A stretch of 64,000 nt of DNA, from IMG/VR virus record IMGVR_UViG_3300010049_000002; one strand, 5' to 3'. The stretch comes from a virus. Shown in pieces: positions 6,848 to 55,619 of this stretch. The stretch's first letter is position 1, and each line of letters opens with the position of its first letter. The notes beneath the pieces are model-generated. The model had not been told where the DNA came from. It made no database searches and saw only the letters and a list, made by a program, of their open reading frames with translations. The position numbers were made by a program, and so were the translations under genes.

Positions 6848-6860
6848 CCCCCTCCTCGAG

Positions 6861-7142
6861 CTACTCACGGTGGGCCTCCCGCAGCCTCCGTTCGACGCGG
6901 AGTAGGACAAGGTAGCCGAGCAAATCCAGCTCCACGTCCTCGCCCGCGGCGCTCCCCCGGGCCAGCCTGGAGAGCTTGTCATCGAGCCTCACCCGAATCG
7001 CCTCATCGGGCGGGGCCTTGGAGAAGATACGCAGCGGCCGGAGGGCCGAATCACCGTACGCCTCGTTCTTGGCAAGAAGCAGCGCCTTGAGCGCGTCGCA
7101 CTCCTTCTCGATGAGGGCCCGGGTGGCTCCGTCGTCATCCAT
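6861..7142 (-). CDS. DUF1599/Nmad1-like (MazG-fold-like) small protein (93 aa), tentative
   Basis: KNEAYGDS..RIFS...IRVRLDDKLSRL resembles my memory of the DUF1599 pattern (K.hDYG .. DK..R). Confidence 0.45.
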   Translation of the reverse strand: MDDDGATRALIEKECDALKALLLAKNEAYGDSALRPLRIFSKAPPDEAIRVRLDDKLSRLARGSAAGEDVELDLLGYLVLLRVERRLREAHRE

Positions 7143-26481: not shown

Positions 26482-27164
26482 GTCGGCGACGGAGCAGCAG
26501 GCGGGTTCAGAAGCGGAAAGAGAACCCGGACACGACGACCATCCTCATCATCGGGGGGCTCGTGATAGCTACCGGTGTCGGGGTCTACTTCCTCACCCGG
26601 CCCCAGCAACAGCAGAATGGGGGCGGCAACGGTGGAGGAGGCGGGGGAGGCAATAATCCCCCGCCCCCCACCGGCATCACCTACGGCGGCAATACCTTCA
26701 GCCTGACCGACGTCTGCGCTCGAGCGGGCCAGACGGCCGCCCAGACCGGAGCTGACCCGAGCATCTGGGCCGCGCTCTGCCAAGAGCACGGAGGCACACC
26801 AGCTCCTCCACCGACAACCCCGCCGCCGACCAACACCCTGCCCCCCGCAGCGTCGACCGCCACCGACTCCACCGTCGTCTGGACCGACCCCCACGGCGTT
26901 CCGTACACGCGCCTGCAGGCCTGTCAGCTGTCGATTGTCCCTGGGGGGTACGGCGGCAAGACACCAAGCCAGTGGTACGACCTCTGCTCGTCGAACGGCG
27001 GGTCGGGGCCGACTATGGTCGGTGTCAACGATAACACCGTCGTCTATGGGCCGGACCCGGGGGGCGTCACCTATACGCGCAAGAAGGCCTGCCAGCTGGC
27101 CCAGGGCGGCGGTACGTTCTGGCCGGCTCTTTGCAAAATGTACGGCGGCACCCCAGGACCCTGA
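26478..27164 (+). CDS. KENP-TM anchored protein with three 2-Cys repeat domains (228 aa)
   Basis: MSRRRSSRRVQKRKENPDTTTILIIGGLVIATGVGVYFLT; three C..(W/F)..LC...GG(T/S) units; ATGA coupling. Confidence 0.65.
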   Translation: MSRRRSSRRVQKRKENPDTTTILIIGGLVIATGVGVYFLTRPQQQQNGGGNGGGGGGGNNPPPPTGITYGGNTFSLTDVCARAGQTAAQTGADPSIWAALCQEHGGTPAPPPTTPPPTNTLPPAASTATDSTVVWTDPHGVPYTRLQACQLSIVPGGYGGKTPSQWYDLCSSNGGSGPTMVGVNDNTVVYGPDPGGVTYTRKKACQLAQGGGTFWPALCKMYGGTPGP

Positions 27165-27166
27165 CC

Positions 27167-27637
27167 ATGAGCAAGAGAATCCAAAGAAGAAAGAGCAAGG
27201 AGAACCCCAACGTCGTGCCGATGTTGGTCATCGGGGGGCTGGTCATCGCCGCGGGGGTGGGCGTCTACTTCCTCACCCAGCAACAATCTGGAGGGGGAGG
27301 AGGAAGCTCTACCCCGAACATCTCCGTCCAGGGCAAGAACTTCACCCTTGCGCAAATCTGCGCGAACGCGGGTCTGCCCCAGAGCCAGACCAACGTCGAC
27401 CCGGCGACCTTCGCCTCGCTCTGCACCCAGCATGGGGGGACACCCGCCGCCGCGCCGACCGGCCCCAACATGACCGTGGCCAAATTCCCGAATGGCACCG
27501 TCAACGTCACCCGGGCGATGGCCTGCGGGTGGGGCAAGTTCGCACAGACGGCGCCCACCGGCTCCATCGCCGGGAAGACCTACGCTCAGTGGGCAACTCT
27601 CTGCACGCAAAACGGCGGAACGGTAGGGGGGAGCTGA
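27167..27637 (+). CDS. KENP-TM anchored protein with two 2-Cys repeat domains (156 aa)
   Basis: MSKRIQRRKSKENPNVVPMLVIGGLVIAAGVGVYFLT; paralog of previous gene. Confidence 0.65.
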   Translation: MSKRIQRRKSKENPNVVPMLVIGGLVIAAGVGVYFLTQQQSGGGGGSSTPNISVQGKNFTLAQICANAGLPQSQTNVDPATFASLCTQHGGTPAAAPTGPNMTVAKFPNGTVNVTRAMACGWGKFAQTAPTGSIAGKTYAQWATLCTQNGGTVGGS

Positions 27638-27638
27638 G

Positions 27639-28202
27639 ATGGCGAGACGCAAATCGAACCCAATCAGCAATACCACCTGGCTCCTGGTTGGGGGAGGGGT
27701 GCTGGTGGTCGGCGGTGTCGCGTTCTGGGCCATGACCCGCAGGACGACCCCTCCACCTGGGGGGCCGCGGAACTTCACCCAGAGCACCGGCGGCGGATGT
27801 GACCCAGGCTACGTGCTAGGGCCCGATGGCAACTGCTGGGCACCGTGCCAAAACGGGAGCGCGCCTGATGCCAACGGGTGCTGCCCGGAGGACTACCAGA
27901 ACGGCAACTGCGGCGGAGGGGGAGGCGGTGGCGGTGGCGGGCAGGTCTACGATGACAACACGGTGGTCGGGACCGATGTGAATGGGAATAATGTCACCAG
28001 GTGGCAGGCCTGCCAGTGGGCCGTGCAGTATGCGACCAACTCGATAGCGGGCAACACCAGCGACAATCTGAACAAGGCCGGGCTCCTGGCCGGGGCGTGT
28101 CAGGCCTTCCAGGGAACCTTCAACGCGCCGTTCGGAGTCAGCCTCCAGATTCAGACCCCGCCGATTGGGGTTCTGCAGTCGAATCTGCCGACGGCCCCCT
28201 GA
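27639..28202 (+). CDS. KSNP-TM anchored Cys-rich protein with poly-Gly run (187 aa)
   Basis: [32 protein letters not shown]; G10 run; one 2-Cys unit. Confidence 0.6.
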
Positions 28203-28205
28203 GCC

Positions 28206-28772
28206 ATGCCGCTTGAGAAGGACCCCGCGCTCCAGTATTTGGCCCGGCTGGCGCTGGCGAGGAGCGGAATGCCTGGCCCACCGGGACCTCCGGGGCCGCC
28301 GGGCGAGCCGGGCGAGGATGGGCCCCCGGGCATCGATGGGCCCCCCGGAGAACCAGGCCAGGATGGGCCCCCCGGGCCTCCGGGTTTGAACGCCGGCAAC
28401 ATCATCGGTCCGGTCAGTAACACGTCCGTCGCCACCAGTGTGTCATCAGCCTCTATCGACCTCCCAGGGCCCTCTGGATATATGCCTCGTAGCTCCGGGA
28501 CTGTCCTATTTTGGGCCACGGTCAACGGCACGATGGATGCAACTCCAGGGTTCATCGTCCTGGACGTCCAGTTAGATGGGGGGACAGTAGTATCTTCCGC
28601 GAGGACCGGCGGGACAGTGATACCGAACGGCGTATTTACCGTAGTCAATCTCGGGACCGCTCAACTTCCGCTGGATGGGAGTCCTCACTTCTTGAGAGTT
28701 GCTTCAAGCACCACGGCCGGAACCTACACCGTCCAGGCCGGCAGCCTCACAATTTTCGCTGTCGAGCTCTAA
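28206..28772 (+). CDS. collagen-like (GXY) fibre protein 1 (188 aa)
   Basis: [40 protein letters not shown] then beta-rich head; N-terminus [18 protein letters not shown]. Confidence 0.75.
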
Positions 28773-29308
28773 TGCCGCTCAGTGACGAGTACCTCACCAA
28801 GCTTGCGGTTGGAAGACCGGTGGTTCCGGGACCCCAGGGTGCTCGGGGTGTTGACGGCACTCCAGGCAACCCAGGCGCGAACGGCGCTACAGGGATACCG
28901 GGCGAGGATGGAAATCCAGGGCCCGCAGGTGAGAGCACGGCCAACTACCTATTTACGGCGCAGAACACGGCTAGCAGCGGAACGAGTATATCGACAACTA
29001 CGGTAAACTACACATCCCACGGCTCTGGTATCATCATCGTATGGCTCATGGCCAATATCGCTAGGCTGGTGGAAAGCGCGACACAAGGGTCATTGACGAT
29101 AAGGCTCTATGTCAATGGATCAGGGCAGCCAGTTAAATTTGTGCGATTTGATGCTGTCAATGGGATACGTGGGGCGGGTCAGATTTTCTTGTGGGTGGTG
29201 GCGATAACCACAGGAAGCACCGCAGCCTTTTATGCGAATGCATCGGGTACTTTGACAACAAATGCCCAACTCGGAAACCTGAGACTTCTCGGCCTGGAAT
29301 TGACCTGA
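28772..29308 (+). CDS. collagen-like (GXY) fibre protein 2 (178 aa)
   Basis: GPQGARGVDGTPGNPGANGATGIPGEDGNPGPAG; start overlaps previous stop (TAATG). Confidence 0.75.
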   Translation: MPLSDEYLTKLAVGRPVVPGPQGARGVDGTPGNPGANGATGIPGEDGNPGPAGESTANYLFTAQNTASSGTSISTTTVNYTSHGSGIIIVWLMANIARLVESATQGSLTIRLYVNGSGQPVKFVRFDAVNGIRGAGQIFLWVVAITTGSTAAFYANASGTLTTNAQLGNLRLLGLELT

Positions 29309-32292: not shown

Positions 32293-32568
32293 ATGCTCTC
32301 CCGCGCACAACGACGCCTCATCCGCCAGACCATCGGGTCGGCCCCAGCCCCACCGCCGGCTCCGCTTGAGAGGGCGGGCTACTCAATAGCCGAGGCCGCT
32401 CAGGTGGTAGGCGTCCGGCCGGCGACGCTCCGGCGGATGGTCGAGCGCTACGCCCAGGTCGAGGGCGACGAGGTCGTGTCGCGCTTGACCGGCATGACCG
32501 TCAGAAAGCGCGGCGGCCTGGGCCGGTGGGTCGTTACCCTCGACCCGTGGCTGAAAGGCCCGGCCTAG
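32293..32568 (+). CDS. helix-turn-helix DNA-binding protein (91 aa), excisionase/regulator-like
   Basis: YSIAEAAQVVGVRPATLRRMVERY; converges on and overlaps serine recombinase stop. Confidence 0.5.
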   Translation: MLSRAQRRLIRQTIGSAPAPPPAPLERAGYSIAEAAQVVGVRPATLRRMVERYAQVEGDEVVSRLTGMTVRKRGGLGRWVVTLDPWLKGPA

Positions 32569-34181
32569 GCCACCGCCGAGAGTTCAATGGTTCGTTCAAC
32601 AGCCCTGCGGCTACTGTTCAAACCATTGAAGTCGACGTCGCAGCCGGCCAGGCCTGCGTAGGTCCCCGTCCCGTGGAGCTTCCAGGCTCTTTTCCCTTGG
32701 ATTGTGACCAGGCTTGCCCGGAGCCGCTGGCCGCCCAGCAGGACCCGGACAGCCTCCGCGGCCTCGCGGCCCCCCTTGGCCAGGCTCTGGCGCAATTGCT
32801 CGGCCTGCTTCTCCAGGTTGGCGACGAGCCTTCGGGCATCCAACTCCGGAGGGCCAGCCTTCAACCGCTCCAGGCTCTTCTCCAAGGTCGCCAGCCGCGC
32901 CTTCTCCTTGTCCAAAGCCTCGTAGATGTCCCCCCGGTGGGCTTGTGGGGCGGTGGCGACGGCGTCGATGAGGTTGGCCTTGCGTCTCTTGGCGCTGGTG
33001 ATTTCCGCCTCGATGCGCTTTCGGTCGTCGGCCCGCTTGGGGGTCGTCCGGAGCTCCTTCCGGAGCCGGTCGCAGGTCTGCTTGATTCGTTCGGGGGTCA
33101 GCATCCCCGCCGCCATTTCGATGACCGCCTTCTCGACCCGCCAGGCGACACGCATCCCGATGCCAGGACAGGCTTTGGTCCGCGTGTGGTTGCAGTGATA
33201 AGACCGGGTGGGGCCGGAACCGGTCGCCGCGATACACCCCCCGCAGAGGCCGCAGGCGATGACGCCCGAGCAGACGTTGAACACGGTCCCCTTTCGCTCG
33301 GTGAAGTGCCATGGCCTGTTGGTCCGAGCGTGCGCCATCGCAGCCTCGAGGCGGGTGATTTGCTCCGGGGAGAGAATCGCCAGGTCCGGGAGCTCGTAGC
33401 GCTGGCCGGAGAACATCCGGTACCCCCGGTAATACGGATTCTTCAGGACGAACAAAACAGAGCTCATGACCCAGGGCCCCTCGGCCGACCGGAGGCCCTC
33501 GTCATTCAGGATGATGGCTGTCCGCCGGTAGCTCTCGGTCTGGAGGAACACATCGAAGAGCCGGCGGACGACAGCTAGCTCCGGCTCGTGCTTGACGGCC
33601 CATTTGCCGGGCCGGTCGCCAGTGCCCCGTGCGTCGGCGATGGTCACGGTTTTGAGCCGGTAGCCGAATGGCGGTTTGCCGGTGGCCCGGCCCTCGTTGG
33701 CGCGCTTTTGCAGATTCTCCTTAGACCGGTAGCTCGCGGCGAGTCTCTCTCCTTCGCCCCGGAAGCTATCGACGGTCGTCAGAAGCAGGTCGGGACCGCG
33801 GATACCGACCTCCTTGCCCTCCCGGTACTTCCAGACCTTGACCCCCACGGCGTGTAGGTCGCTCAGGATGGCGATGGACCGGTGGGCCTCGAGGCGCGAT
33901 AGCCGGTCGAGGGCCCGGACGACGATGACGTCGAACTCTCGCCGTTTGGCCGCCGCCAGCATCGCCTGGAGCGCCTTGCGTTCCTCGGTGCCGCCCGAGA
34001 CGCCGTCGTCGACGTAGACGTGGCCTTCATCGAGGCGCCACGCCTGGGCGGCGATTGCCTCGCGAGCGTTCTCCTCCTGGACCCGACAGGATTCGATGCC
34101 TAGCTGCTGGCCGCGAAGGTCCTCCTTGGAGAGACGTACGTAGATGGCGGCCCGGAGGGCGGTGGTCGAGGGCTTGTTCAT
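32565..34181 (-). CDS. large serine recombinase/integrase (538 aa)
   Basis: AAIYVRLSKED, DDGVSGG, VVVRALDRLSR resolvase motifs; recombinase domain, Cys zinc ribbon (CGLCGG..CNH..C), coiled-coil C-terminus. Confidence 0.9.
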   Translation of the reverse strand: MNKPSTTALRAAIYVRLSKEDLRGQQLGIESCRVQEENAREAIAAQAWRLDEGHVYVDDGVSGGTEERKALQAMLAAAKRREFDVIVVRALDRLSRLEAHRSIAILSDLHAVGVKVWKYREGKEVGIRGPDLLLTTVDSFRGEGERLAASYRSKENLQKRANEGRATGKPPFGYRLKTVTIADARGTGDRPGKWAVKHEPELAVVRRLFDVFLQTESYRRTAIILNDEGLRSAEGPWVMSSVLFVLKNPYYRGYRMFSGQRYELPDLAILSPEQITRLEAAMAHARTNRPWHFTERKGTVFNVCSGVIACGLCGGCIAATGSGPTRSYHCNHTRTKACPGIGMRVAWRVEKAVIEMAAGMLTPERIKQTCDRLRKELRTTPKRADDRKRIEAEITSAKRRKANLIDAVATAPQAHRGDIYEALDKEKARLATLEKSLERLKAGPPELDARRLVANLEKQAEQLRQSLAKGGREAAEAVRVLLGGQRLRASLVTIQGKRAWKLHGTGTYAGLAGCDVDFNGLNSSRRAVERTIELSAVA

Positions 34182-43373: not shown

Positions 43374-44780
43374 ATGGCTGAGATGGGTATAAAAGATAAT
43401 GATTCCGGATACTTAGACACGAAAGCGCGCATCATGGCGGCGATACGGGGCAAGGGCTACTCCCCCCCGGCTACCCAGCGAGAGCCCGACCCGCCCGCGG
43501 AAGCTATACCGGCCGACGAAGATAGCCCCGATAGCGAACCGGTCGAAGAGCCCACCGAGCAGGAGCTCCTGGAGGCGGCGGGAATCCCGAGCCACGTAGC
43601 GGCGGCGATAGCGGCCCCGGACGAGGGCGCGCCCGGCGAGCTACCGGAGGTGGGCGCGGATGCTAACGGGGCCCCGGGGGCTCCAAGCCGAGCGCTGGCC
43701 CTGCGCACCGATTTGCTCCCGCCCGGCGCAGGGGTGCTCTGCGCGCTTGAGGACGACCCGGGCCTCTACTGCATGCAGAGCTACCTGGCGTCGCGGGTTT
43801 CCGGCGACAGCAAACGAACGATGCTCCAATCCCTGCAAAGGGTCGCCCGGATGCTCAACACCACCCCGGACAAAATCGCCTGGCACAAGCTCCGGTTCCA
43901 GCACACCGATGCGATTCGAGCAAAGCTCCTCGACTGCGGCTACTCCCGCGCGACGGTGATGATGACGCTGGCCGGCCTGAAGGGGGTGCTTCGTCAAGCA
44001 AAGCGGCTCGGGCTCATGTCCGTCGAGGATTACGACCGGGCCACGGACTGGGACCCGGCGACGGGCGTTTCGCTCCCCCCCGGGCGCGAGCTCTTGGCCG
44101 TCGACATCCAGAGCATCCAAGCCTATCTCGGCCAGCTTGAGGGCACGGCGTACGGGGCGTATCTGGAGGCCGTCTTCGCGCTCTGCCTGGGCCTGGGATT
44201 GCGCGGCGACGAGGCTTCCAACGTGCTGACGGTCGGCCTGGACCTTGGGAAAGCAACGTTGAAGCTCCTGGGCAAGGGCCACAAGGAGGACGAGGTTCCG
44301 CTAGGGCCCGCGGAGAGCCGGGCGCTAAGCTCCTGGCTCGCCTGGCGCAAGTTCTTCGAACGTCGGCACCGCGTTCCCCACCTGCTTCTCAGGGTCCAGC
44401 CGAACGACACCGTGATGAAGAGCCGGCCCACCTGCGACCGAAAGCAGCTCGAGTACCTGTGCCGCCGCGTCGCCCGCGAGGCCGGGGTCAAGCACTTCTC
44501 GCCCCACGACTTGCGGCGGACCTTCTGCACCCGGGCCATCCGCGAGAGTGGGGGCGACCTCGCGACGGTCCAGCGGCTCATGCGCCACGCCGACATCGGT
44601 ACCACGAAACGCTATGACCGGCGAAGCGACGAGGAGCGCCACGCCGCCCGGCAGAAGTGGACCATCTGGCGGCCCCCGGAGCCGGTCGAGCCCGAGCCGC
44701 TTGAGGAGCCCGAGCCGCCGGAGAGCCCGCCGGAAACTCGCAAGCCCGGGTTCCGGTTGCTCCCCGGGGGCAAGACTTGA
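43374..44780 (+). CDS. int: tyrosine recombinase/integrase (468 aa)
   Basis: LGLRGDE (box I Arg), HDLRRTF, LMRHADIGTTKRY (His-x-x-Arg..Tyr) catalytic signature. Confidence 0.9.
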   Translation: MAEMGIKDNDSGYLDTKARIMAAIRGKGYSPPATQREPDPPAEAIPADEDSPDSEPVEEPTEQELLEAAGIPSHVAAAIAAPDEGAPGELPEVGADANGAPGAPSRALALRTDLLPPGAGVLCALEDDPGLYCMQSYLASRVSGDSKRTMLQSLQRVARMLNTTPDKIAWHKLRFQHTDAIRAKLLDCGYSRATVMMTLAGLKGVLRQAKRLGLMSVEDYDRATDWDPATGVSLPPGRELLAVDIQSIQAYLGQLEGTAYGAYLEAVFALCLGLGLRGDEASNVLTVGLDLGKATLKLLGKGHKEDEVPLGPAESRALSSWLAWRKFFERRHRVPHLLLRVQPNDTVMKSRPTCDRKQLEYLCRRVAREAGVKHFSPHDLRRTFCTRAIRESGGDLATVQRLMRHADIGTTKRYDRRSDEERHAARQKWTIWRPPEPVEPEPLEEPEPPESPPETRKPGFRLLPGGKT

Positions 44781-46848: not shown

Positions 46849-47026
46849 CTTCTCCGGCCCGGCCCCGAGCGATGCTCCCAGCCCGCTTGGCGCCCTTCTT
46901 GACCCGTCGGTCGGCCTCTTCAGTCAGCTTGCCGACTTCCTCGAGGGCCCTTTCCACCCCCGCGGCCAGGACCTTCCCGCCGACGGATTTTAGCTCCTCC
47001 GCCATGGCCCTCATGAAGGGGTTCAT
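46841..47026 (-). CDS. hypothetical protein (61 aa)
   Basis: Trimmed to MNPFMRAMAEEL; ATGA coupling. Confidence 0.4.
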   Translation of the reverse strand: MNPFMRAMAEELKSVGGKVLAAGVERALEEVGKLTEEADRRVKKGAKRAGSIARGRAGEDD

Positions 47027-47220
47027 GCAAACCGGGCCTTCTCCTCGGAGAGGCTCAAAACCCTCAAGGGGTTTCCCTGGAGCCAGGCCAAGTCCTGCTC
47101 TGCGAGGGGACGCCTCCAGCCGAGGGGGGAGACAGCCTGGAGCAGAGCAAATTGCCGGCCTCGAGCGACGCCGATGTTGGCCCGTCCTCCCCACCGTCGG
47201 AGCCGGCTGGTCCACCTCAT
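47023..47220 (-). CDS. hypothetical basic protein (65 aa)
   Basis: ATGA coupling at both ends (GroES stop 47217; next start 47026). Confidence 0.4.
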   Translation of the reverse strand: MRWTSRLRRWGGRANIGVARGRQFALLQAVSPLGWRRPLAEQDLAWLQGNPLRVLSLSEEKARFA

Positions 47221-47540
47221 GGCTCTTCGACAATCTGAGCCAGGATGGCTTCATCCCGGGCCATGAGGAGCTCTTCGCCGTTCAATTCCACCACCGGGAA
47301 GGGGTTCCGGGCATTGAACACCACCCTATCCCCGGGGCGTATGTCCGGCATCGGCCACCGGGTCCCGTCTTTCAGGCGCATCCCCCGACCCATCGCAATG
47401 ACGGTCCCAAAGGAAGAAGGCTTGCGGTAGGCCGGGGGGATGACCAGTCCCCCCCGGGAGAACGCTGAAGGTTCGTCCGGCCGAATGAGTATCCGGTTCT
47501 GGAGAAGCCCCAGGCGCTCAGGGTCGAAGGTGGCGGTCAT
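47217..47540 (-). CDS. groES: GroES/Cpn10-like co-chaperonin (107 aa)
   Basis: NRILIRPDE..SRGGLVIP..FGTVIAMGRG..IRPGDRVVF..GEELLMARDEAILAQI aligns by eye with GroES. Confidence 0.8.
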   Translation of the reverse strand: MTATFDPERLGLLQNRILIRPDEPSAFSRGGLVIPPAYRKPSSFGTVIAMGRGMRLKDGTRWPMPDIRPGDRVVFNARNPFPVVELNGEELLMARDEAILAQIVEEP

Positions 47541-47776
47541 GCGGCGGAGTCCTCTTTGCGATTGCGACTCCGGGCCTGGCCACCCTTGCGGCCAATCTCG
47601 GCCATATGGGCCCTGTCCGAAGCTACCTTCTCGCCGCCCTTCCTGCCCGCCGCCGCGGCCTCGCGTGTGGTGAACTCGTGGGCCTTGCCAGCGGCGTGGG
47701 CCGCAATCCCGCCCTTGCGGGCAATCTCGGCCTGCTTGGCGGGGTCCATCGACGCGAAGCCGCGGGGTTTGCTCAT
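47537..47776 (-). CDS. KGG-repeat general stress protein (YciG-like) (79 aa)
   Basis: GFASMDPAKQAEIARKGG..GRKGGEK..IGRKGGQA. Confidence 0.75.
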   Translation of the reverse strand: MSKPRGFASMDPAKQAEIARKGGIAAHAAGKAHEFTTREAAAAGRKGGEKVASDRAHMAEIGRKGGQARSRNRKEDSAA

Positions 47777-47785
47777 GGCAGCGCC

Positions 47786-48781
47786 TTAGTCTCGGTTCCG
47801 GTCCCGGCCGCCGCGGTCGCCGCGGTCACCCCGGTCGCCGCGGTCGTCGCCCCGGCGGTCATCATCATCGCGCTCCCTGTCGTCGTCATCGCGCTCGCGG
47901 TCCCGGTCGTCATCGTCCCGGTCTCGCCGGTCGTCGTCGTCGTCCTCGCGCTCACGTTCTCCGCGCTCACGCTCACGTCGGCGCCCAAACCGGTCATGGT
48001 CCAGGCTCTCCCTCCAGGTGTGGTCGCCCTGGTGGACTTCGACCATCTTCTTGCCATCGCGTTCAAAGAGACGAACTCGGCCCTTGCCCCGGACGTGATG
48101 CCGGCGGCACATGTCGGCCGCCTGGCGAGCCGCGCACTCGTGGTCCTCGCGCTCGAACATGCTGCGCTCCTTCTCTTTCTCGTGGAACTTGCTCTCGTCT
48201 TCCTCGTCCTCGTCGCGCGAGCTCTTCTTGGCCTTGTGCTCGTCCTCGTCGTACTTGCGACGGTTCTCGTCCTCCTCGCGCTCCTTGTATTTGCGCTCGG
48301 CGTGGCCCTTCTGCTCGTCCTCTTCGTGCTCGCCTTCCTCGCGGTCGTACTCGACGCGCTTGTACTCGACGACGTGCTCGCGCTCGTGGTGCTTCTTCTC
48401 GTGCTCCCGCTCCCCGCTGCGCTCACGCTCGGCAGACTCGCGCTCATGGCGCTCATGCTCCTTGGAGGCGGACTCCTTTTCCTTGCGGCCGTACTCGGAG
48501 CGGGCGGATTCCTTCTCCTTGCGCTCGCGCTCCCGGGAGCGGTCCTCGTCCTCGGCGCGGGAACGCTTCTCTTCGCGCTCATGTCGGCCCTCGGAACGCT
48601 CGCCCCGCTCGCGCTTCTCGAAGTCGTCATCACGACTCTTGTCGCGGCCCTCGAAGCGGTCCTCCCGGCCTTCGCGACCTTCGCGCTCCTTCTTGCGCCA
48701 GCCCTCGTCGGAGCGACGCCGGAGGTGGTTTTCCAGGTCCTCGCGACCCAGGTCATCGATTTCAAAATTGATTCCAGCCAT
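47786..48781 (-). CDS. extreme mixed-charge (E/R/D/K/H) low-complexity protein (331 aa)
   Basis: MAGINFEIDDLGRED.. then ERER/EKE/DDDRRDR tracts; short Cys/His-containing non-repeat island; AAGGA SD; frame choice not certain. Confidence 0.55.
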   Translation of the reverse strand: MAGINFEIDDLGREDLENHLRRRSDEGWRKKEREGREGREDRFEGRDKSRDDDFEKRERGERSEGRHEREEKRSRAEDEDRSRERERKEKESARSEYGRKEKESASKEHERHERESAERERSGEREHEKKHHEREHVVEYKRVEYDREEGEHEEDEQKGHAERKYKEREEDENRRKYDEDEHKAKKSSRDEDEEDESKFHEKEKERSMFEREDHECAARQAADMCRRHHVRGKGRVRLFERDGKKMVEVHQGDHTWRESLDHDRFGRRRERERGEREREDDDDDRRDRDDDDRDRERDDDDRERDDDDRRGDDRGDRGDRGDRGGRDRNRD

Positions 48782-48820
48782 CTTCGTCATCCTTTCAAAG
48801 AGTCGTTGGAGGGGCCCCAA

Positions 48821-49954
48821 TCACCAGTTTTCCCAGCCCTCGTCATCCCAATCCCGCCCCCGCCGGCGGTCATCCCAGTCGCGCCCTCGGCGGCGGTCGT
48901 CCCAGTCGCGCCTTCGGCAGTCGTCCCAGTCCCGGTAGACGACGCGCGGGTAGTAGCGGCCGACCGGGTCGTGGGCGTGGTGCCAGTCGTTCTCGCGCTG
49001 CTGCGCGTAGAAGTTCCCGGCTCGGGGCGAGCAGTAGGCCATCGGACCGTAGCCCCTTCCGGGGCCATAACCGTAGCCATAGCCCCCCCGGCCGTAGCCG
49101 CCGGTATAGTAGTTGGCGCGCCCGTACCCGTAGCCCATGTAGCCGTCCCGATACGGGTAACGTCCCATGGCATATCGGTCCCCATAGAGATAGGGGTGTC
49201 GGGCCCCGTACGCGTAGGGCATGGGATAGTAGCGCCCGTCCCAATACGGGGCCGGGTAGGGGTAGTAGTAATCGCCCCGGCGGCGGTCGTCCCAGTCGTG
49301 CCGGCGGCGCTCATCCCAGTCCCCCCGGCGCCAGCCTCGGCGGCGGTCATCATCATCCCGTCGGTCGTCATCATCTCGCCGGCGGTCGTCGTCGTCTCGT
49401 CGTTCCCGGCGGCCTTCCCAGCGCTCATCGAAGTCGACGTGGTGCCGCTCCCGCCGCTCGCCCCGGTCGTCATCCCGGTCTCGGCGGCGGTCATCATCGT
49501 CTCGCCGGTCGTCCCAGTCTCGCCTGTCGTCTCGGTCTCGGTATGCCATCTGCATTTCCTCCCAATCGGGTTCTTGTGCTTCTCGAGCCCGGCGCTCCAG
49601 GCGCTCCCGGTCGCCGTAGGTAAAAATAGCGCGCCCGTAACCCGTGTCATCCCCCCACCAGCTCGCCCGTGTGGGTGCCAGGGACATTGGGTAGGATGAG
49701 GGGACCACCGGGGGGTTGGCCTCGCTGGAGACTCGGCCCGGGGTCACAATCATCTGCTGCGGACGGGGGTTGGCCGGGGTCGGTCTTTGCACCCCCTGAG
49801 CGCCCGCGGGGAATTGCCGTTGCGCCACCCGCCAGTTGGTGGTGATGCCAGCTCGTATCGTCGGGGAAAACCCGCGATACCACCGGGGGTTTGGAACCCG
49901 GAATGGCATCGGGCCCGCGGGGTTTCGTGTCGGGTCACCGGGGCGGCTGGGCAT
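48821..49954 (-). CDS. RD-repeat plus Tyr/Gly-rich low-complexity protein (377 aa)
   Basis: AAGGAG SD before ATG 49954; RDWDDRRR repeats, GYGYGRANYYTGGYGRGGYGYGYGPGRGYGP segment; alternative starts 50005 and 49549. Confidence 0.55.
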   Translation of the reverse strand: MPSRPGDPTRNPAGPMPFRVPNPRWYRGFSPTIRAGITTNWRVAQRQFPAGAQGVQRPTPANPRPQQMIVTPGRVSSEANPPVVPSSYPMSLAPTRASWWGDDTGYGRAIFTYGDRERLERRAREAQEPDWEEMQMAYRDRDDRRDWDDRRDDDDRRRDRDDDRGERRERHHVDFDERWEGRRERRDDDDRRRDDDDRRDDDDRRRGWRRGDWDERRRHDWDDRRRGDYYYPYPAPYWDGRYYPMPYAYGARHPYLYGDRYAMGRYPYRDGYMGYGYGRANYYTGGYGRGGYGYGYGPGRGYGPMAYCSPRAGNFYAQQRENDWHHAHDPVGRYYPRVVYRDWDDCRRRDWDDRRRGRDWDDRRRGRDWDDEGWENW

Positions 49955-50012
49955 TCTCGGCTCCTTGGCTTCTCGGGCAACTTCTCGGTGCCAGGTCAGT
50001 GACACCCTCCAG

Positions 50013-50651
50013 TCAAGTCTTGTGAATCATCGTCCAGGCGAGCAGGCCGCCGCCGACGAGGACCGCTCCGCCGATAATCCACGGGGTCCAGTCGGTGGGC
50101 TTGGCGGCCGGGGGATTCGTTCCGGTGGTGCTTGCCGGGGTGGTGGTGCTGGTCCCGCCCCCGCTGGTGGTCCCGCCCTGCTGGTTGGTCGAACCGCCAC
50201 CGCCCCCGGAGGCCTGCCCGACGCACCCCGGGGGAGCGGTGTTGGAGAAGGTCCCGGCCGGAGAGTCGGAGATGACCTGGTCGAGCGCGCTCATGGTGTT
50301 GGTCCCATAGAGGTCGTCGACCGCAATTGCAGGCGAGTATTCGGCGTTGTAGGCGGTCTGGAAGGCGGAGACGACGCCTCCTCCCGCAGGACACCCACCG
50401 TTGTTGTATTGGTTGAAGACGGCCTGCGCGGCGCTGATAAGGCTGCCCGAGGGCTGGCCGAACCCGAAGGCGACGTACCTCATGGGGCGCATCGTCACCC
50501 GCTCGCGGGCATACCAGGTTCCCTCATGGAGCAATGGCTGGGTGGCCCCCAGGCCCGGCGGAGCGAAGGGTGAAAGGAACCATCCACCGGCAGGGCCAAC
50601 CCTCGGGCGGACCAGGCTCATAATCTTGGGGGCGCTATTGGGGGGAATCAT
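50013..50651 (-). CDS. PG-binding-like protein with C-terminal TM anchor (212 aa)
   Basis: VSAFQTAYNAEYSPAIAVDDLYGTNTMSALDQV resembles the PG_binding_1 pattern; C-terminal WIIGGAVLVGGGLLAW. Confidence 0.5.
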   Translation of the reverse strand: MIPPNSAPKIMSLVRPRVGPAGGWFLSPFAPPGLGATQPLLHEGTWYARERVTMRPMRYVAFGFGQPSGSLISAAQAVFNQYNNGGCPAGGGVVSAFQTAYNAEYSPAIAVDDLYGTNTMSALDQVISDSPAGTFSNTAPPGCVGQASGGGGGSTNQQGGTTSGGGTSTTTPASTTGTNPPAAKPTDWTPWIIGGAVLVGGGLLAWTMIHKT

Positions 50652-52373: not shown

Positions 52374-53843
52374 TCAGAGGGCGAACTTGATTCCGACGCA
52401 GGCGAAGATGGCATCCCGCAGGTCGGCATTGGACGACAGCTGCGTGTACCAGTCCTGGCTGACTTCGAAGCCGCGGATGGGCAGGGTCAGTTTCAGGTCG
52501 CCTCCCTGGAAGATGACCCGCTGGGCATCGACCTGCTGGGCGGCGTAGGTGCTAGCCTCCATCGTGGCCTCGAGCATCACCGTATTGACGCTGGTGAGGT
52601 TCGGGTCGTTGGTCCAGGTGAAGTCGGCGTTCCAATTGAGGTCTGGGGTGATGGCCGGAGGCGTCTGCCCGCCCAAACCTTGGGTAATCGAGAGGAATTG
52701 CCTCATCTGGTCGCCCTGCACGGAGTCGGTTTCCTGGAGGAAAATCCCAATCGGCACCCCTCGGGGAATCACATACGGAACGCACATCTTGCGGAACTCG
52801 GAGTTGCCCCGAAGCATGGAGCGGAGGTCCATCCCGCCGTAGGTCGCCGGGACGAGCTCGAAGTGCCGATTCGGGTTGAAGACCCCGAGGTTGACCGTCG
52901 GGTTGGCGTCGGTGGGCGGAGCCGCGAGAGGGTTCTGGATGCTGCTGGTGCTCCCCGACCTAACAAAGTCGACCGGCATGAAGTTCAAGGCGCTCCCCAG
53001 GGCGTCGTATCGCTTGTTCACATTCGAGACGAACGTCACGGTGTCGACTTGGGAATTGGACGCTGACCCCTCTTGGGCGTTGGGAGGCATGTAGGCCGTA
53101 TGCCTAAGCTGCTCGTCCATGATGTTGACGTGCTGGCCAATCTTCCAACGGTAGTTGTAGGCTCGAGCGAGGTGCCAGCCGACGTAGTTGGCCCACCATC
53201 CCCACCGGAGAATCGCCGGAACGAAGCTCATTCCCACATTGGGGCCATTGGGGTCAAACAATGCCCCGTTGAAGTAGTCGTTGCGGGTGAACACGTCCGG
53301 GCTGGGGGGCTTCTGGCCGCCCTGGGTCGGATGGTCGACCGCGTTTCCAATCACGGTCCAGCAGAGGGGCTCGGGCTCGATATGGAATCCCACATAGCAG
53401 GCCACAAAATTTACTTGAGTTTGACCCGTCTGGGCCATCGTGGTCTCGACGTAGTCAATCCCGAAGGGTGATTTCCCGCTTCCGAAGAGGTCAATCTCAG
53501 CGCCGAAGTTGACGGTGATGCTCTCGTCGACCTGGGGCCCGGTCATGGTCCAGCGGACTTGCTCAATCACGTCCATGTTCCACACGGGCGTCTGGCTAGA
53601 CTGCTGCATGGCATCGAGGATGGACCCCGCTCCCACCCTCAATTGCTCTGCGGTGCGAATCCGGCTCAAGTCGATGGCCACGCCGGCGCCGACCTGGTAG
53701 CGGTTGGCCGGCCGCTCCCGCACAACGGGCTTGGTCACCCGCGGGGGAACGGGACGCGTCTCCCATTGCTTCCTCACAAAGGGCGGCCTGGCGAGGGCCC
53801 GGCTGGGCTGGGCGGGACGATGTGCTGCTGCTCCAACTTTCAT
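52374..53843 (-). CDS. large virion-module protein, capsid candidate by size and position only (489 aa)
   Basis: Largest non-repetitive structural-block ORF; no family recognised by eye. Confidence 0.55.
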   Translation of the reverse strand: MKVGAAAHRPAQPSRALARPPFVRKQWETRPVPPRVTKPVVRERPANRYQVGAGVAIDLSRIRTAEQLRVGAGSILDAMQQSSQTPVWNMDVIEQVRWTMTGPQVDESITVNFGAEIDLFGSGKSPFGIDYVETTMAQTGQTQVNFVACYVGFHIEPEPLCWTVIGNAVDHPTQGGQKPPSPDVFTRNDYFNGALFDPNGPNVGMSFVPAILRWGWWANYVGWHLARAYNYRWKIGQHVNIMDEQLRHTAYMPPNAQEGSASNSQVDTVTFVSNVNKRYDALGSALNFMPVDFVRSGSTSSIQNPLAAPPTDANPTVNLGVFNPNRHFELVPATYGGMDLRSMLRGNSEFRKMCVPYVIPRGVPIGIFLQETDSVQGDQMRQFLSITQGLGGQTPPAITPDLNWNADFTWTNDPNLTSVNTVMLEATMEASTYAAQQVDAQRVIFQGGDLKLTLPIRGFEVSQDWYTQLSSNADLRDAIFACVGIKFAL

Positions 53844-53912: not shown

Positions 53913-55619
53913 TCAGTCCCCGCCCTCGTCCGGGTATCCCCAGGTGAACGGGTTGAACTTGGGTTGCGGGGGGGCCGCCATGCCGTACGGACTCCCGCGA
54001 AGGGTCTCGGTGATGGCCGCGCGCGGGGGAGGGGGAGGCGGCGGTGGAACCGGCGGAGCGGTGGCGGGCACCGGCGGGAGGTTCACCTGCTGGGGAGGAA
54101 CCGCGGTCGGGGGAGGGGGAACGGTATTGGCGGTTGCCACTTCCCGGGGGAGTGAAGGCCAAGCGGCCCCAACTCCCCGGGCGGGATATCCAACCCCATG
54201 ATGGGAATGGGGCGCTCCGTGGCCGGCGGCTCCGTGACCGCCGCAGCCGGGGCAGGGATTGCCCGGCCCGCACCCACCGCATCCAGCCTTTTGAGGAGCT
54301 CCCAACGCTCGAATGGGCGCCCGCCGGCCCAACCCGGCGCTGGGGAGTTGCGGGCCAGTGGTGGGGAGCGTCCCACCCTTGACCGTCTGGAGGAGATTGG
54401 CGCGCATCTCTCCGTCGAAGAGCTGCTGGCCCATGGGGCTGGTCATGGTCATGGCCGCGAGGCCGTCGATGGCCATCTTTCCGAAGATGCGAACTCCGGC
54501 GCCATAACCGGCTATCGTCAATCCCGTCTTGAGGCCGGGCCCCTTGGCGAGACCTGCCCCACCCCAAAAGAGCAAAAGAACCCCGCCCGCCACCAGCATG
54601 CGCATGGGCGAGGCCCACATGGGCGCGGCTATCGCGGTGGGGTTGTAGAGGCCCTCATAAGGGCTCCCCGTGGGTCCCCGGGGGTCGGAGTAGATGACAT
54701 TCCCCGTGGAGTCCTTCTGCCCCGAGTCTTGGAGGGAATGGGTTGTGGCGAACCGGTCGACGATGTCGCCGACCATGAAGCCCGCCAGGGCGCTGAAGAA
54801 GTGCCCGACGTACTCGCCCTTTCCCTCGAGCGGATTCTCCAGGGTCGCGTGGGAGGAATGGCGCCGGTAGCGGCTAGGGTTCTTGCGCCGGCCCCGTCGA
54901 CGTTCGCTCGCCGGGGGACGCTCGGGGCCGTAGTGCGTCTCGTGCTCGATGGTCGCCCCGTGCGTGCCGTGCATCTTCGCGGGCGCGCGCCTCTTCTTCT
55001 TCCGGTGGCTCGACTTACCGCTCCGGCCTCGTGTGAATTGGCCCTTCTTGTTGCGCTTGGGGCCTCGGCCGGAGCTTCGTTTGCCGACCTTGCCTTTGCC
55101 CTTCCTGCCCCTCTTTCGACGTTGCCAGCCGAGCCTCGCCGCCTTCGCGTGGGCGGAGCGGTTGCCGTGCCAGGCCTCCCGCGCTCCGCTCTTCTTCTTC
55201 TTTTTGTAGGCCTTGCGCTTTCCCTTGCTGCGCTTGATGAAGCGGCCCTTGGAGTCGCGCTTCATGCGACCCGCGTGGCGCTTGCCCTTTCGACGCTGAT
55301 GGCCCTTGAGCGCGGCTTTGCGGTGGCCGGCCCGATTGCCGTGCCAAGCCTCCATCGCTCGACTGCGCCTACGACGCGAGGAACGACGGGGCTTCTTGCT
55401 CCCGGATTCGCTGGCCCGGGAGCTTCCCCGGCGACGAGCCGTCCGGCGCTTCCTGGGCTTCTCTCCGGCCCTGGCCCTCGAGGTCCGGCCCCGGCGCCGG
55501 GCGGTCTTCACCCGAGGCTTCTCACTGGCCTTCGCCCGACGGGCAGCCCTCGCCTTGCGGAGGTTGCGCATGCTGGCCTCGCGGGCTCTCGCGCTCTGCC
55601 GGCGCTTGGTCTTTGCCAT
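53913..55619 (-). CDS. hyper-basic (Lys/Arg) N-terminal domain fused to membrane domain and Pro-rich tail (568 aa)
   Basis: Trimmed to MAKTKRRQSA (GAGGA SD; motif copy lies upstream). Duplicated EAWHGNR..H.KAA..G.QRRK motif. RKNP and LENP precede hydrophobic segments. Confidence 0.6.
   Translation of the reverse strand: MAKTKRRQSARAREASMRNLRKARAARRAKASEKPRVKTARRRGRTSRARAGEKPRKRRTARRRGSSRASESGSKKPRRSSRRRRSRAMEAWHGNRAGHRKAALKGHQRRKGKRHAGRMKRDSKGRFIKRSKGKRKAYKKKKKSGAREAWHGNRSAHAKAARLGWQRRKRGRKGKGKVGKRSSGRGPKRNKKGQFTRGRSGKSSHRKKKRRAPAKMHGTHGATIEHETHYGPERPPASERRRGRRKNPSRYRRHSSHATLENPLEGKGEYVGHFFSALAGFMVGDIVDRFATTHSLQDSGQKDSTGNVIYSDPRGPTGSPYEGLYNPTAIAAPMWASPMRMLVAGGVLLLFWGGAGLAKGPGLKTGLTIAGYGAGVRIFGKMAIDGLAAMTMTSPMGQQLFDGEMRANLLQTVKGGTLPTTGPQLPSAGLGRRAPIRALGAPQKAGCGGCGPGNPCPGCGGHGAAGHGAPHSHHGVGYPARGVGAAWPSLPREVATANTVPPPPTAVPPQQVNLPPVPATAPPVPPPPPPPPRAAITETLRGSPYGMAAPPQPKFNPFTWGYPDEGGD

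Follow-up and report, generated by a model that had tools for sequence, protein, structure and literature searches.

Two adjacent minus-strand genes of an uncultivated phage of ~65 kb (IMG/VR record IMGVR_UViG_3300010049_000002) encode proteins of extreme composition, here called YG and ERDK. Are the two reading frames genuine genes, and what might such proteins do for the phage? We addressed both questions in a window of 64,000 nt, the whole stretch of DNA that was analyzed, to which all coordinates refer.

Gene structure and composition

YG (48821..49954, minus strand; ORF and start read directly) begins with the ATG at 49954, stops at 48821-48823, and encodes a 377-aa orphan protein of 45.9 kDa (pI 9.0, GRAVY −1.79). 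Its residues are 20% R, 15% D, 10.6% G, 9% Y, 9% P, and 5% W, so that one chain carries 34 Tyr, 18 Trp, and 77 Arg. By composition, four parts were distinguished. Residues 1-135 (49550..49954) form a nonrepetitive Pro/Arg-rich N-terminal region, followed by an Arg/Asp(+Trp) mixed-charge domain at residues 136-227 (49274..49549; R 38%, D 36%), in which repeat periods were 18, 21, and 24 nt and all positive residues were Arg. Residues 228-330 (48965..49273) are a Tyr/Gly/Pro/Arg-rich tract (Y 25%, G 19%, P 11%), and residues 331-377 (48824..48964) are C-terminal DWDDRRRG(R) repeats with a 27-nt period (~3.5 copies). Two of the 9-aa units at this C-terminus encode the same peptide with four synonymous third-position differences.

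ERDK (47786..48781, minus strand; ORF and start read directly) begins with the ATG at 48781, stops at 47786-47788, and encodes a 331-aa orphan protein of 41.0 kDa (pI 5.4, GRAVY −2.59). It is 66.5% charged (R 21.8%, E 21.5%, D 15.4%, K 7.9%), with a net charge per residue of −0.07. The sequence-only reading had described this protein as extremely charged with one short Cys/His-containing nonrepeat island, and the island was found at residues 206-268 (2 Cys, 6 His). The strings that it had quoted (RDWDDRRR repeats, GYGYGRANYYTGGYGRGGYGYGYGPGRGYGP, and DDDRRDRDDDDRDRERDDDDR) were all located in the proteins, and good Shine-Dalgarno sites were read directly upstream of both genes, as it had claimed: AAGGAG 6 nt 5′ of the YG start (49961..49966) and GAAAGGA, Shine-Dalgarno-like, 8 nt 5′ of the ERDK start (48790..48796).

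The structure of ERDK was predicted with AlphaFold from the single sequence (mean pLDDT 66.8). Residues 52-184 (48230..48628) were predicted to form one continuous alpha-helix of 133 residues, ~20 nm long, with a block pLDDT that reached 76-89 across approximately residues 70-180 and was lower before them. This segment contains 42 E, 25 R, and 15 K; Pro is absent, and A/I/L/M/F/V/W/Y together account for 15 residues. Opposite charges at i+3/i+4 were enriched (0.195 vs. a shuffle mean of −0.005, z = 2.5), a modest signal that 14 of 2000 shuffles reached. The island was predicted as an alpha-beta-beta-beta-alpha fold at residues 197-277 (47951..48193; helix 197-227, strands 235-241, 244-251, and 254-260, helix 263-277), where pLDDT was 76-84 across approximately residues 221-260 and fell off at both ends. 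Neither fold nor sequence searches with the island returned a significant match; the best Foldseek matches, all nonsignificant (E = 0.2-1.5, probability about 0.2-0.9), were the dsRNA-binding domains of DGCR8, DCL4, and R2D2 and also SRP9/14. Residues 278-331 (47789..47950) are a predicted disordered Asp/Arg tail with 9- and 27-nt repeats, ending in (GDR)3GGR.

Support for the reading frames

Both ORFs were present on the minus strand where they had been placed earlier, and the gene caller of the public contig gives the identical pair of calls (377 and 331 aa). The sequence-only reading had left the frames to be verified by GC3 and codon statistics, and these supported the annotated frames. 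The YG frame had the best synonymous codon score of six (0.266) and was the only stop-free frame; ERDK scored 0.326, and both values lay within the range of ten reference genes (0.23-0.45). GC3 was higher than GC2 in YG (0.77 vs. 0.56) and in ERDK (0.82 vs. 0.39). Every period of the tandem repeats was a multiple of 3, and 22 of the 43 variable columns between repeat units fell at third codon positions (P = 0.012). This third-position excess, together with genome-typical synonymous codon use, indicates constraint at the peptide level. Codon usage and repeat variation thus support YG and ERDK very probably being genuine genes in their annotated frames.

That the annotated frames are wrong, being the shadow of another frame or a frameshifted collagen-like relic, is highly improbable. 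The candidates are a 697-aa antisense ORF (47606-49699) and a Ser/Thr/Ala/Gly-rich −1 frame. The antisense ORF ties with the annotated frame over ERDK (0.331 vs. 0.326), across which three frames are open, but it crosses the Pfam-confirmed KGG gene and scores 0.036, with a stop, over YG. The −1 frame scores 0.08-0.12 and has an atypical GC pattern. Shifted by one base, the Asp/Arg codons yield Thr/Ala/Gly strings resembling the G-A-T collagen repeats of related phages; however, nucleotide similarity to ten collagen-like genes did not exceed that of codon-shuffled controls (74 of 100 and 21 of 100 shuffles equaled or exceeded the observed score), and variation among repeat copies prefers third positions of the annotated frame.

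Distribution and genomic context

Six contigs encode exactly these two proteins. An assembly artefact was rejected on this count and on the identical YG/ERDK DNA of a second contig, fetched from a different sequencing run. The pair was confined to a single clonal genotype of one phage lineage, with identical DNA in every contig examined. Searches of Pfam, PHROGs, NCBIfam, PDB, and GenBank phages gave no homologue of either protein, and the YG N-terminus (140-aa query) had no match among 1.84 billion representative proteins. Neither protein matched a Pfam family, the ERDK island not even at E = 10, and the sole Pfam match of the YG Tyr/Gly tract was a nonsignificant keratin head (E = 0.7). The exact sequences were also absent from a large protein collection that holds their same-contig neighbors; such proteins may therefore escape routine homology screens. 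A scan of all six frames located 60-aa windows of balanced charge in which at least 70% of the residues are charged in YG and ERDK only; other viral loci, about 1.25 Mb in all, had none. The combination had been called undescribed, and we likewise found no published description.

YG and ERDK occupy the variable far end of a long minus-strand operon. They are separated by 39 nt; 9 nt separate ERDK from a KGG (YciG-like) gene of 79 aa (47537..47776, minus strand; PF10685, E = 3.4e-13), which overlaps by 4 nt a gene for a GroES-like co-chaperonin of 107 aa (47217..47540, minus strand; PF00166, E = 4e-14; phrog_3188; scores under the NCBIfam cut-offs). No promoter or terminator signal between YG, ERDK, and their neighbors exceeded shuffled expectation, and the layout supports reading YG, ERDK, KGG, and GroES as one putative co-directional operon. 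Upstream of YG lies the gene for a protein of 212 aa that has a membrane anchor at its C-terminus (50013..50651, minus strand); this gene is the only variable-slot gene shared with relatives (tblastn homologues in loci L003 and L004, E about 1e-7). The pair had been placed between a virion block and the KGG and GroES genes: the downstream half of this placement is borne out by Pfam, whereas the "virion block" is without family or fold support. The genes upstream of YG had no Pfam, PHROG, or PDB match, and for the best-conserved of them an AlphaFold model gave no significant fold match. A Lys/Arg-rich 568-aa protein of pI 11.9 is encoded 4 kb upstream. Elsewhere, the phage has two collagen-like genes of its own (28206-28772 and 28772-29308) with 12-14 G-X-Y triplets.

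The sequence-only reading had staked itself on related elements carrying a related sequence at this position, and here it failed. In 13 related phages the equivalent position holds genes unrelated to YG and ERDK, and tblastn of the two against 25 related loci gave nothing at E ≤ 1e-3. The proteins in this slot are membrane-anchored, collagen-like (G-X-Y with C-terminal beta domains), or Ig-like (155 aa); one further protein is glycine-rich and one has 907 aa. The KGG gene recurs in most of the relatives that were surveyed, and KGG and GroES are retained in nearly all related phages whose contig extends that far. The unrelated sequences argue against a conserved role in the phage group, not against the reality of the genes, and the fibre-like and membrane proteins speak for a structural role no less than for a protective role.

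Possible functions

On the evidence of the frames, the absent homologues, and the unrelated genes at the relatives' position, YG and ERDK are genuine lineage-specific orphan genes formed by repeat expansion. They illustrate how such expansion at a variable operon end can produce long, codon-adapted orphan genes. Probably, the products are made late in infection, lack enzymatic activity, and either self-associate or protect; we infer expression timing, disorder, self-association, and any protective or scaffold role. Among the roles proposed earlier (DNA condensation, ejection, condensate scaffold, and protectant), only the last two have backing from composition or position.

In the mechanism that we propose, both genes would have arisen by in-frame expansion of 9-27 nt repeats. 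YG would be largely disordered and multivalent through its Arg/Asp/Trp mixed-charge domain, Tyr/Gly/Pro tract, and DWDDRRRG repeats, and ERDK would combine a rigid charged single helix of ~20 nm with the small alpha-beta-beta-beta-alpha island and the Asp/Arg tail. Produced with the late genes and highly hydrated, these non-enzymatic "material" proteins would associate with themselves and with each other through Arg-Asp and Arg-Tyr/Trp contacts, giving a matrix that would be cohesive or protective, in the manner of hydrophilins or mixed-charge domains, and that would act beside the KGG hydrophilin and GroES in assembly or particle protection. We put this mechanism forward as possible and doubtful; the statement as a whole, of co-transcribed orphan genes with a material-protein mechanism, is tentative and deserves serious consideration. 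A condensate would be physically plausible for sequences of this kind. It is improbable that the two proteins are a condensate- or glass-forming pair that makes up, with KGG and GroES, a late proteostasis or protection compartment; in such a compartment, located in the infected cell or in or around the particle (e.g., for desiccation survival), the Arg/Asp/Trp and Tyr/Gly segments of YG would be the scaffold, and ERDK, which would bring a small binding domain, would be a charged-helix spacer of 20 nm.

Other explanations were weighed against the same evidence. YG and ERDK might be translated yet dispensable, short-lived orphans, generated by repeat expansion in a recombination-prone region and without a specific role, which would leave them merely extreme phage orphan genes. 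Their restriction to one genotype, the lack of homologues for the YG N-terminus and in the family libraries, their near-total construction from short tandem repeats, and their location where the operon varies most agree with this. It is nevertheless somewhat unlikely given the third-position excess and the genome-typical codon use, the presence of two adjacent genes of ~1 kb with open frames, Shine-Dalgarno sites, and compact spacing, and the nonrepetitive ERDK island with its confidently predicted small fold. We also consider it unlikely that the proteins are accessory parts of the virion, either on its surface, as fibres or decorations for which the ERDK helix would be a 20-nm stalk, or as internal or ejected proteins. 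The slot in the 13 relatives does hold repeat-built, elongated proteins (collagen-like, Ig-like, glycine-rich, and the 907-aa protein), ERDK is predicted to be rod-like, and the operon is shared with the best-conserved, presumably structural, genes. However, YG and ERDK have no sequence similarity to any of the relatives' slot proteins and no trimerization motif, beta-domain, or signal peptide; the upstream block lacks the family or fold matches that would mark it as structural; and collagen-like genes are already present elsewhere in this phage, which leaves no gap in fibre function.

A role directed at nucleic acids is very unlikely. YG and ERDK would then serve as an RNA or DNA chaperone, as a DNA-condensing partner or counter-ion for the 568-aa protein, or as an anti-defence DNA/RNA mimic, and the ERDK island would be a double-stranded-RNA-binding-like module. 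ERDK is net negative, the mixed-charge segments are not polycationic but close to neutral or negative, and the fold matches of the island, nonsignificant as they are, have no counterpart in Pfam; in favor stand the topology of the island and the identity of those top matches, the Arg-rich tracts with Tyr and Trp for stacking, and the pI 11.9 protein 4 kb upstream.

Comparison with known systems

The collagen-like fibre proteins of the relatives share the operon position with YG and ERDK and are likewise repeat-built, elongated, and of low complexity. However, YG and ERDK have no G-X-Y periodicity except in the ERDK C-terminal (GDR)3GGR, share neither the N- nor the C-terminal domains, and are no more similar in nucleotide sequence than shuffled controls. 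With dsRNA-binding domains, the ERDK island agrees in topology, but only at the Foldseek values given above and with no Pfam match.

Glu/Arg/Lys single alpha-helix (SAH) domains are found in myosin VI, VIIa, and X, caldesmon, and other proteins (for those of myosins see, e.g., PMC10579538). ERDK 52-184 resembles them in being 62% E+R+K without Pro or a hydrophobic seam, in its uninterrupted predicted helix, and in the i+3/i+4 enrichment of opposite charges. ERDK differs in being richer in His, Ser, Gly, and Asp and in lacking flanking motor or binding domains; its helix is predicted only.

In a 128-aa protein of an unrelated phage (IMG/VR contigs UViG_3300043753_000024 and UViG_3300043734_000074; loci L061 and L048), (D/W)DDRRRG octapeptides stand in tandem and match the YG repeat exactly; the protein also has a charged, helical central region and, as ERDK does, a tail of Gly, Asp, and Arg. 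It is much shorter, belongs to no family, and shows no similarity beyond the repeats; the resemblance is probably convergent. Its gene sits between a gene with PHROG hits to the terminase large subunit and a large gene that is a putative portal gene by its position.

Ser, Gln, and Asn are typical of prion-like domains. Like FUS-type Tyr/Arg "sticker" domains, YG pairs Tyr, Trp, and Arg with a G/Y-rich tract, but it is Pro-rich and poor in Ser, Gln, and Asn, and no RNA-binding domain was detected. The RGG likeness suggested earlier was overstated: YG and ERDK have a single RGG motif each, not several closely spaced ones, and are not RGG-box proteins.

Hydrophilins are defined by Gly >6% and a hydrophilicity index >1.0 (PMC7448490), and the KGG protein YciG (55-60 aa) is classed among them (PMC5437024). 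Both thresholds were passed by YG (Gly 10.6%, Kyte-Doolittle GRAVY −1.79) and ERDK (Gly 7.3%, GRAVY −2.59), which are putatively co-transcribed with a genuine KGG protein, itself borderline in hydrophilicity (−0.92). Unlike hydrophilins and LEA-like proteins, they have no KGG or LEA motif (the Pfam PF10685 profile was unmatched even at E = 10), and they exceed YciG several-fold in length and by far in charge content. If protective, they would be a first hint of phages with their own hydrophilin-type protectants beside a co-chaperonin.

Mixed-charge domains are defined by 60-aa windows in which no fewer than 70% of the residues are charged and positive and negative charges stand in a ratio of 1 ± 0.3; their condensation depends on Arg and is abolished by rising negative charge (Greig et al., bioRxiv 10.1101/771592). 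The alternating-charge description of the sequence-only reading was correct and takes numerical form here: 68 such windows were found in YG (residues 110-241) and 59 in ERDK (residues 12-130 and 237-326), an assignment to a class of composition and not to a family of homologues. R/(R+K) was 1.0 in YG and in the tail of ERDK, and 0.65-0.72 in the region of the ERDK helix; Arg is thus the sole or the main cation, as in the cohesive R-MCD subtype. They differ from the domains of Greig et al. in being viral/bacterial, without an RNA-recognition motif or RS domain, in carrying Trp inside the DWDDRRRG repeats, and in being mostly slightly net-negative (most −1 to −9, two 0). They resemble those domains in the dominance of Arg and Asp and in the thorough, non-blocky mixing of charges (kappa, a measure of charge patterning, about 0.12). 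The condensate reading, if true, would make them the equivalent, in a bacterial virus, of the arginine-rich mixed-charge condensates of eukaryotes, and if the two proteins self-associate or protect, they would offer a compact prokaryotic test of eukaryotic condensate rules (arginine dependence, charge mixing, and Tyr/Arg contacts).

Genomic context and operon structure

The window, which lay within the public metagenome contig ENA ERZ27264051 k141_7338773 (65,174 bp; G+C content about 66%), is a phage genome with genes for a family-A DNA polymerase (11485-14187, minus strand), a primase/helicase, a PD-(D/E)XK nuclease, a SNF2 helicase, a serine recombinase and a tyrosine integrase. The polymerase had a uracil-DNA-glycosylase-superfamily domain fused at its N-terminus, and the large serine recombinase (32565-34181, minus strand) and the tyrosine integrase (43374-44780, plus strand) were both present in this one phage. 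Two short MAG contigs were the only matches in the host search.

YG and ERDK were located inside a long minus-strand gene run. In the direction of transcription, the operon consisted of genes for proteins of 568, 489, 266, 298 and 212 aa, YG (48821-49954, 377 aa), ERDK (47786-48781, 331 aa), KGG (47537-47776), GroES (47217-47540) and several small genes, with KGG and GroES both confirmed by Pfam. The gaps from the 212-aa gene through YG and ERDK to KGG were 58, 39 and 9 nt, and KGG and GroES overlapped by 4 nt. YG and ERDK each had a correctly spaced Shine-Dalgarno sequence, and no promoter-like or terminator-like signal above shuffled expectation was found between them and their neighbors. 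Two charged low-complexity genes had been noticed at this position in a sequence-only reading, and this observation was confirmed by the frames, the Shine-Dalgarno sequences and the Pfam assignments of KGG and GroES.

Exactly these two proteins were found in six contigs. A second contig (run SRR5215206) was identical in DNA to the window, as were three partial ones, obtained from different runs or sources, wherever they overlapped it; therefore, the sequence is not an assembly artifact. Because all contigs examined were identical, there was no population variation to analyze and dN/dS estimation was impossible. Contig edges fell within or a few bases away from the Asp/Arg repeat at the 3′-end of ERDK (47778-47820): of three viral loci compared with the window, L009 (edge at 47820), L010 (47778) and L030 (47781), two begin and one ends there. 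This repeat fragments short-read assemblies.

Reading frames and repeat expansion

The annotated frame of YG was the only stop-free frame of the six and had the best synonymous codon score (0.266, with ten of the window's genes, used as reference, scoring 0.23-0.45). The ERDK region had three open frames, and the antisense frame tied with the annotated frame on codon score (0.331 vs. 0.326). This antisense ORF (47606-49699, plus strand, 697 aa, Leu/Val/Ala-rich) covers KGG and ERDK and reaches into YG. It was rejected as a real gene, given that it crosses the Pfam-confirmed KGG gene and that over YG it scored 0.036 and was interrupted by a stop. The ORF is a shadow of the coding strand, which is rich in purines. 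Gene finders could mis-call it.

The two-fold codons of ERDK matched the preference of the genome (GAG 58 vs. GAA 13, GAC 43 vs. GAT 8, AAG 24 vs. AAA 2). Tandem repeats in YG and ERDK had periods of 9, 18, 21, 24 and 27 nt, every one a multiple of three, and 22 of the 43 variable columns in repeat arrays defined on the DNA fell on the third base of a codon in the annotated frame (binomial test, P = 0.012). A further count, in which 12 of 12 differences between repeat units fell at third positions, was circular, as the units had been chosen for identical peptides, and was not relied on. Taken together, these results support the annotated frames. That YG and ERDK are real protein-coding genes and that they were built by in-frame repeat expansion are both secure.

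Composition and predicted structure

YG consists of a proline-rich N-terminal part of 135 residues, an Arg/Asp/Trp tract of 92 residues (R 38%, D 36%), a Tyr/Gly/Pro tract of 103 residues (Y 25%, G 19%) and DWDDRRRG(R) repeats at the C-terminus. ERDK was 66.5% charged, near-balanced and well mixed (net charge per residue -0.07, kappa 0.12).

Hydrophilins are defined by Gly >6% and hydrophilicity >1 (PMC7448490), and both YG (GRAVY -1.79) and ERDK (GRAVY -2.59) exceeded these thresholds. KGG proteins of the YciG type are themselves classed as hydrophilins (PMC5437024). Mixed-charge domains are defined by 60-aa windows that are ≥70% charged with a positive/negative ratio of 1 ± 0.3 (10.1101/771592); residues 110-241 of YG and residues 12-130 and 237-326 of ERDK fell within this definition, with arginine as the sole or main cation. 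In six-frame scans, no such windows occurred in approximately 330 kb of related phage loci or in approximately 920 kb of other viral loci, and they are rare. Within the window, only YG, ERDK and the hyper-basic 568-aa protein were ≥50% charged in any 60-aa stretch. The composition of YG and ERDK is extreme and rare. The RGG label attached to them in the sequence-only reading was inapplicable, with a single RGG in each protein.

In the single-sequence AlphaFold model of ERDK (mean pLDDT 66.8), residues 52-184 are predicted to form one unbroken helix, with pLDDT 76-89 across approximately 70-180. Residues 197-227 are predicted to be helical again, three strands make up a sheet at 235-260 (pLDDT 76-84), a further, short helix covers 263-277, and the C-terminal Asp/Arg tail is predicted to be disordered. 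The non-repeat, Cys/His-containing island between the long helix and the tail thus had a predicted alpha-beta-beta-beta-alpha topology.

Homologs and look-alikes

Searches of YG and ERDK against Pfam, PHROGs, NCBIfam and PDB sequences gave no match, nor did searches of the ERDK island against Pfam, ERDK against GenBank phages, or YG peptide patterns against IMG/VR. No homolog was found by a full-length YG search among the 8000 low-complexity candidates listed, by a search with the YG N-terminus against 1.84 billion representatives, or by a sequence search with the ERDK island. The exact YG and ERDK sequences were absent from a collection of 15 billion proteins that does include three neighbors from this contig, the 212-aa protein, KGG and GroES; therefore, empty homolog searches with low-complexity proteins should be read cautiously, and such proteins may be under-represented in that collection. 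The Asp/Arg tracts of YG and ERDK could not be linked as paralogs: 73 of 200 local codon shuffles scored at least as high as observed.

A DNA-pattern scan of IMG/VR for DWDDRRR returned one independent lineage with tandem copies, the viral loci L061 (IMGVR_UViG_3300043753_000024; 12010-12396, minus strand) and L048. Both encoded a 128-aa protein with no family match, starting MNGGRYDDDRRRGDWDDRRRGDWDDRRRG, followed by a charged helix and the tail GGRRDGDRDRGRD; its N-terminus carried three (D/W)DDRRRG units and its tail was rich in Gly/Asp/Arg. The gene was flanked by terminase large-subunit (PHROG) matches on one side and by a large putative portal gene, assigned by position only, on the other. 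The octapeptide repeat is the same as that of YG, but the phage is unrelated, and the likeness is probably convergent, because no similarity was found outside the repeats. No GYGYGYGPGR motif was found in IMG/VR, and a (GDR)3 scan returned scattered short tails only; short (GDR)n or Asp/Arg tails were sporadic in other viral proteins. A giant-virus contig (locus L080, IMGVR GVMAG-S-1041346-183, about 6850-7060, plus strand) encoded the C-terminal tail GGGGYGGWGGRGWGNRGYDAGYGNVYNNFDDRRDDRRRGDRGDRGDRGDHGDHGD, in which an Asp/Arg tract comes after one of Gly/Tyr/Trp; these are the two flavors of YG.

A variable slot in a conserved operon

The 489-aa protein (52374-53843, minus strand) defines a metagenomic family with no fewer than 214 members (loci L003-L069), many of them on contigs of 60-82 kb; all named members were "hypothetical." The equivalent region was compared in 13 distinct relatives (45-72% identity). 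Genes for proteins of 489, approximately 250 and approximately 270 aa were widely kept at one end, and KGG, GroES and an approximately 65-aa gene at the other (47023-47776, minus strand, in the window), an order maintained across the phage group (L003-L069). GroES was present in 10 of the 10 relatives whose contigs extend that far and KGG in nine of 10, the tenth (L024) having a large gap outside the survey. Occasionally, a further gene was inserted at the KGG-GroES end: for a vWA-like protein in L027, for a 62-aa protein rich in Cys/His in L028 and for one of 65 aa in L003. We know of no described role for the conserved phage KGG gene.

The slot between the conserved ends varied from about 1.2 to about 6 kb. 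In relatives, it contained membrane-anchored proteins that carried a peptidoglycan-binding-like motif, collagen-like G-X-Y proteins whose C-termini were beta-rich, Ig-like proteins of approximately 155 aa, a glycine-rich protein and, in a single relative, a protein of 907 aa. No gene resembling YG or ERDK was detected by tblastn in related loci. The sequence-only reading had stated that finding an unrelated sequence here in related elements would count against it, and unrelated slot genes were what all 13 relatives carried. It is secure that YG and ERDK are confined to one phage lineage and that, in a conserved operon, they take the variable end, with the conserved KGG-GroES pair directly after them.

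This phage carried membrane-anchored proteins (27131-27637 and 27639-28202) and collagen-like genes (28206-28772, with 14 G-X-Y triplets, and 28772-29308, with 12) elsewhere, all on the plus strand within 27131-29308. Equivalents of these genes occupy the YG/ERDK slot in relatives, which suggests cassette relocation. The relatives may represent an undescribed phage group, possibly membrane-containing because of its many small membrane-anchored proteins.

Upstream of the slot, the genes had no Pfam or PHROGs match except a weak "head closure" match at 2537-3481, and profile and sequence searches of the PDB were empty. An AlphaFold model built for the 489-aa protein from a 36-sequence alignment (pTM 0.69) had no significant fold match in the PDB or BFVD; among its top matches, none of them significant, jelly-roll capsid proteins predominated. 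The window had no recognizable terminase, portal or HK97-type capsid protein. The "virion block" of the sequence-only reading therefore found no family or significant fold support in Pfam, PHROGs, PDB or BFVD. The 568-aa gene (53913-55619, minus strand) lies directly upstream of the 489-aa gene, and genes of similar size (439-533 aa) occupied its position in relatives. The N-terminal approximately 300 residues of its product were rich in Lys and Arg, hyper-basic (pI 11.9) and internally repetitive (AREAWHGNR...); hydrophobic segments came next, and the tail was Pro-rich. The product could be a core protein that condenses DNA or associates with membranes.

Possible roles of YG and ERDK

With low confidence, we propose that YG and ERDK are non-enzymatic, highly hydrated, self- and co-associating proteins. 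The resulting phase, cohesive or protective, would exist late in infection or else within or surrounding the particle. This proposal is made because both proteins fall under the hydrophilin and arginine-rich mixed-charge definitions, because Tyr and Trp are abundant to pair with Arg, because ERDK combines a predicted rigid spacer with a small putative binding domain, and because both would share a transcript with a hydrophilin and a co-chaperonin. Counting against it, the net charge is slightly negative in most mixed-charge segments, and the two proteins lack conservation.

There are four main rivals. YG and ERDK might be virion-associated accessory proteins in a fiber slot; for the upstream block, a possible structural role is suggested only by operon position and the fiber-like genes of relatives. 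They might also be dispensable, transient orphans; both genes are singletons. Alternatively, they might be directed at nucleic acids. The top fold matches of the ERDK island were dsRNA-binding domains and SRP9/14, which were non-significant (E = 0.2-1.5). The fourth, that the frames are wrong, is unlikely. A frameshifted collagen-like origin was considered because a one-base shift turns Asp/Arg codons into strings like the G-A-T collagen repeats and because the slot of relatives holds collagen-like genes, but blastn against ten such genes was no better than codon-shuffled controls, and uncorrected tblastn gave low-complexity noise only.

The earlier interpretation was partly supported: the real genes, the alternating charge and the KGG-GroES operon stood, RGG did not, and the "virion block" could not be verified. 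Recombinant protein would allow a direct test of the condensate or protectant idea. The predicted long helix of ERDK, without proline or a hydrophobic seam and with opposite charges at i+3/i+4 modestly enriched (z = 2.5), carries the signature of Glu/Arg/Lys single alpha-helices, and YG and ERDK together are a new form of known physico-chemical kinds of protein in an unexpected place.
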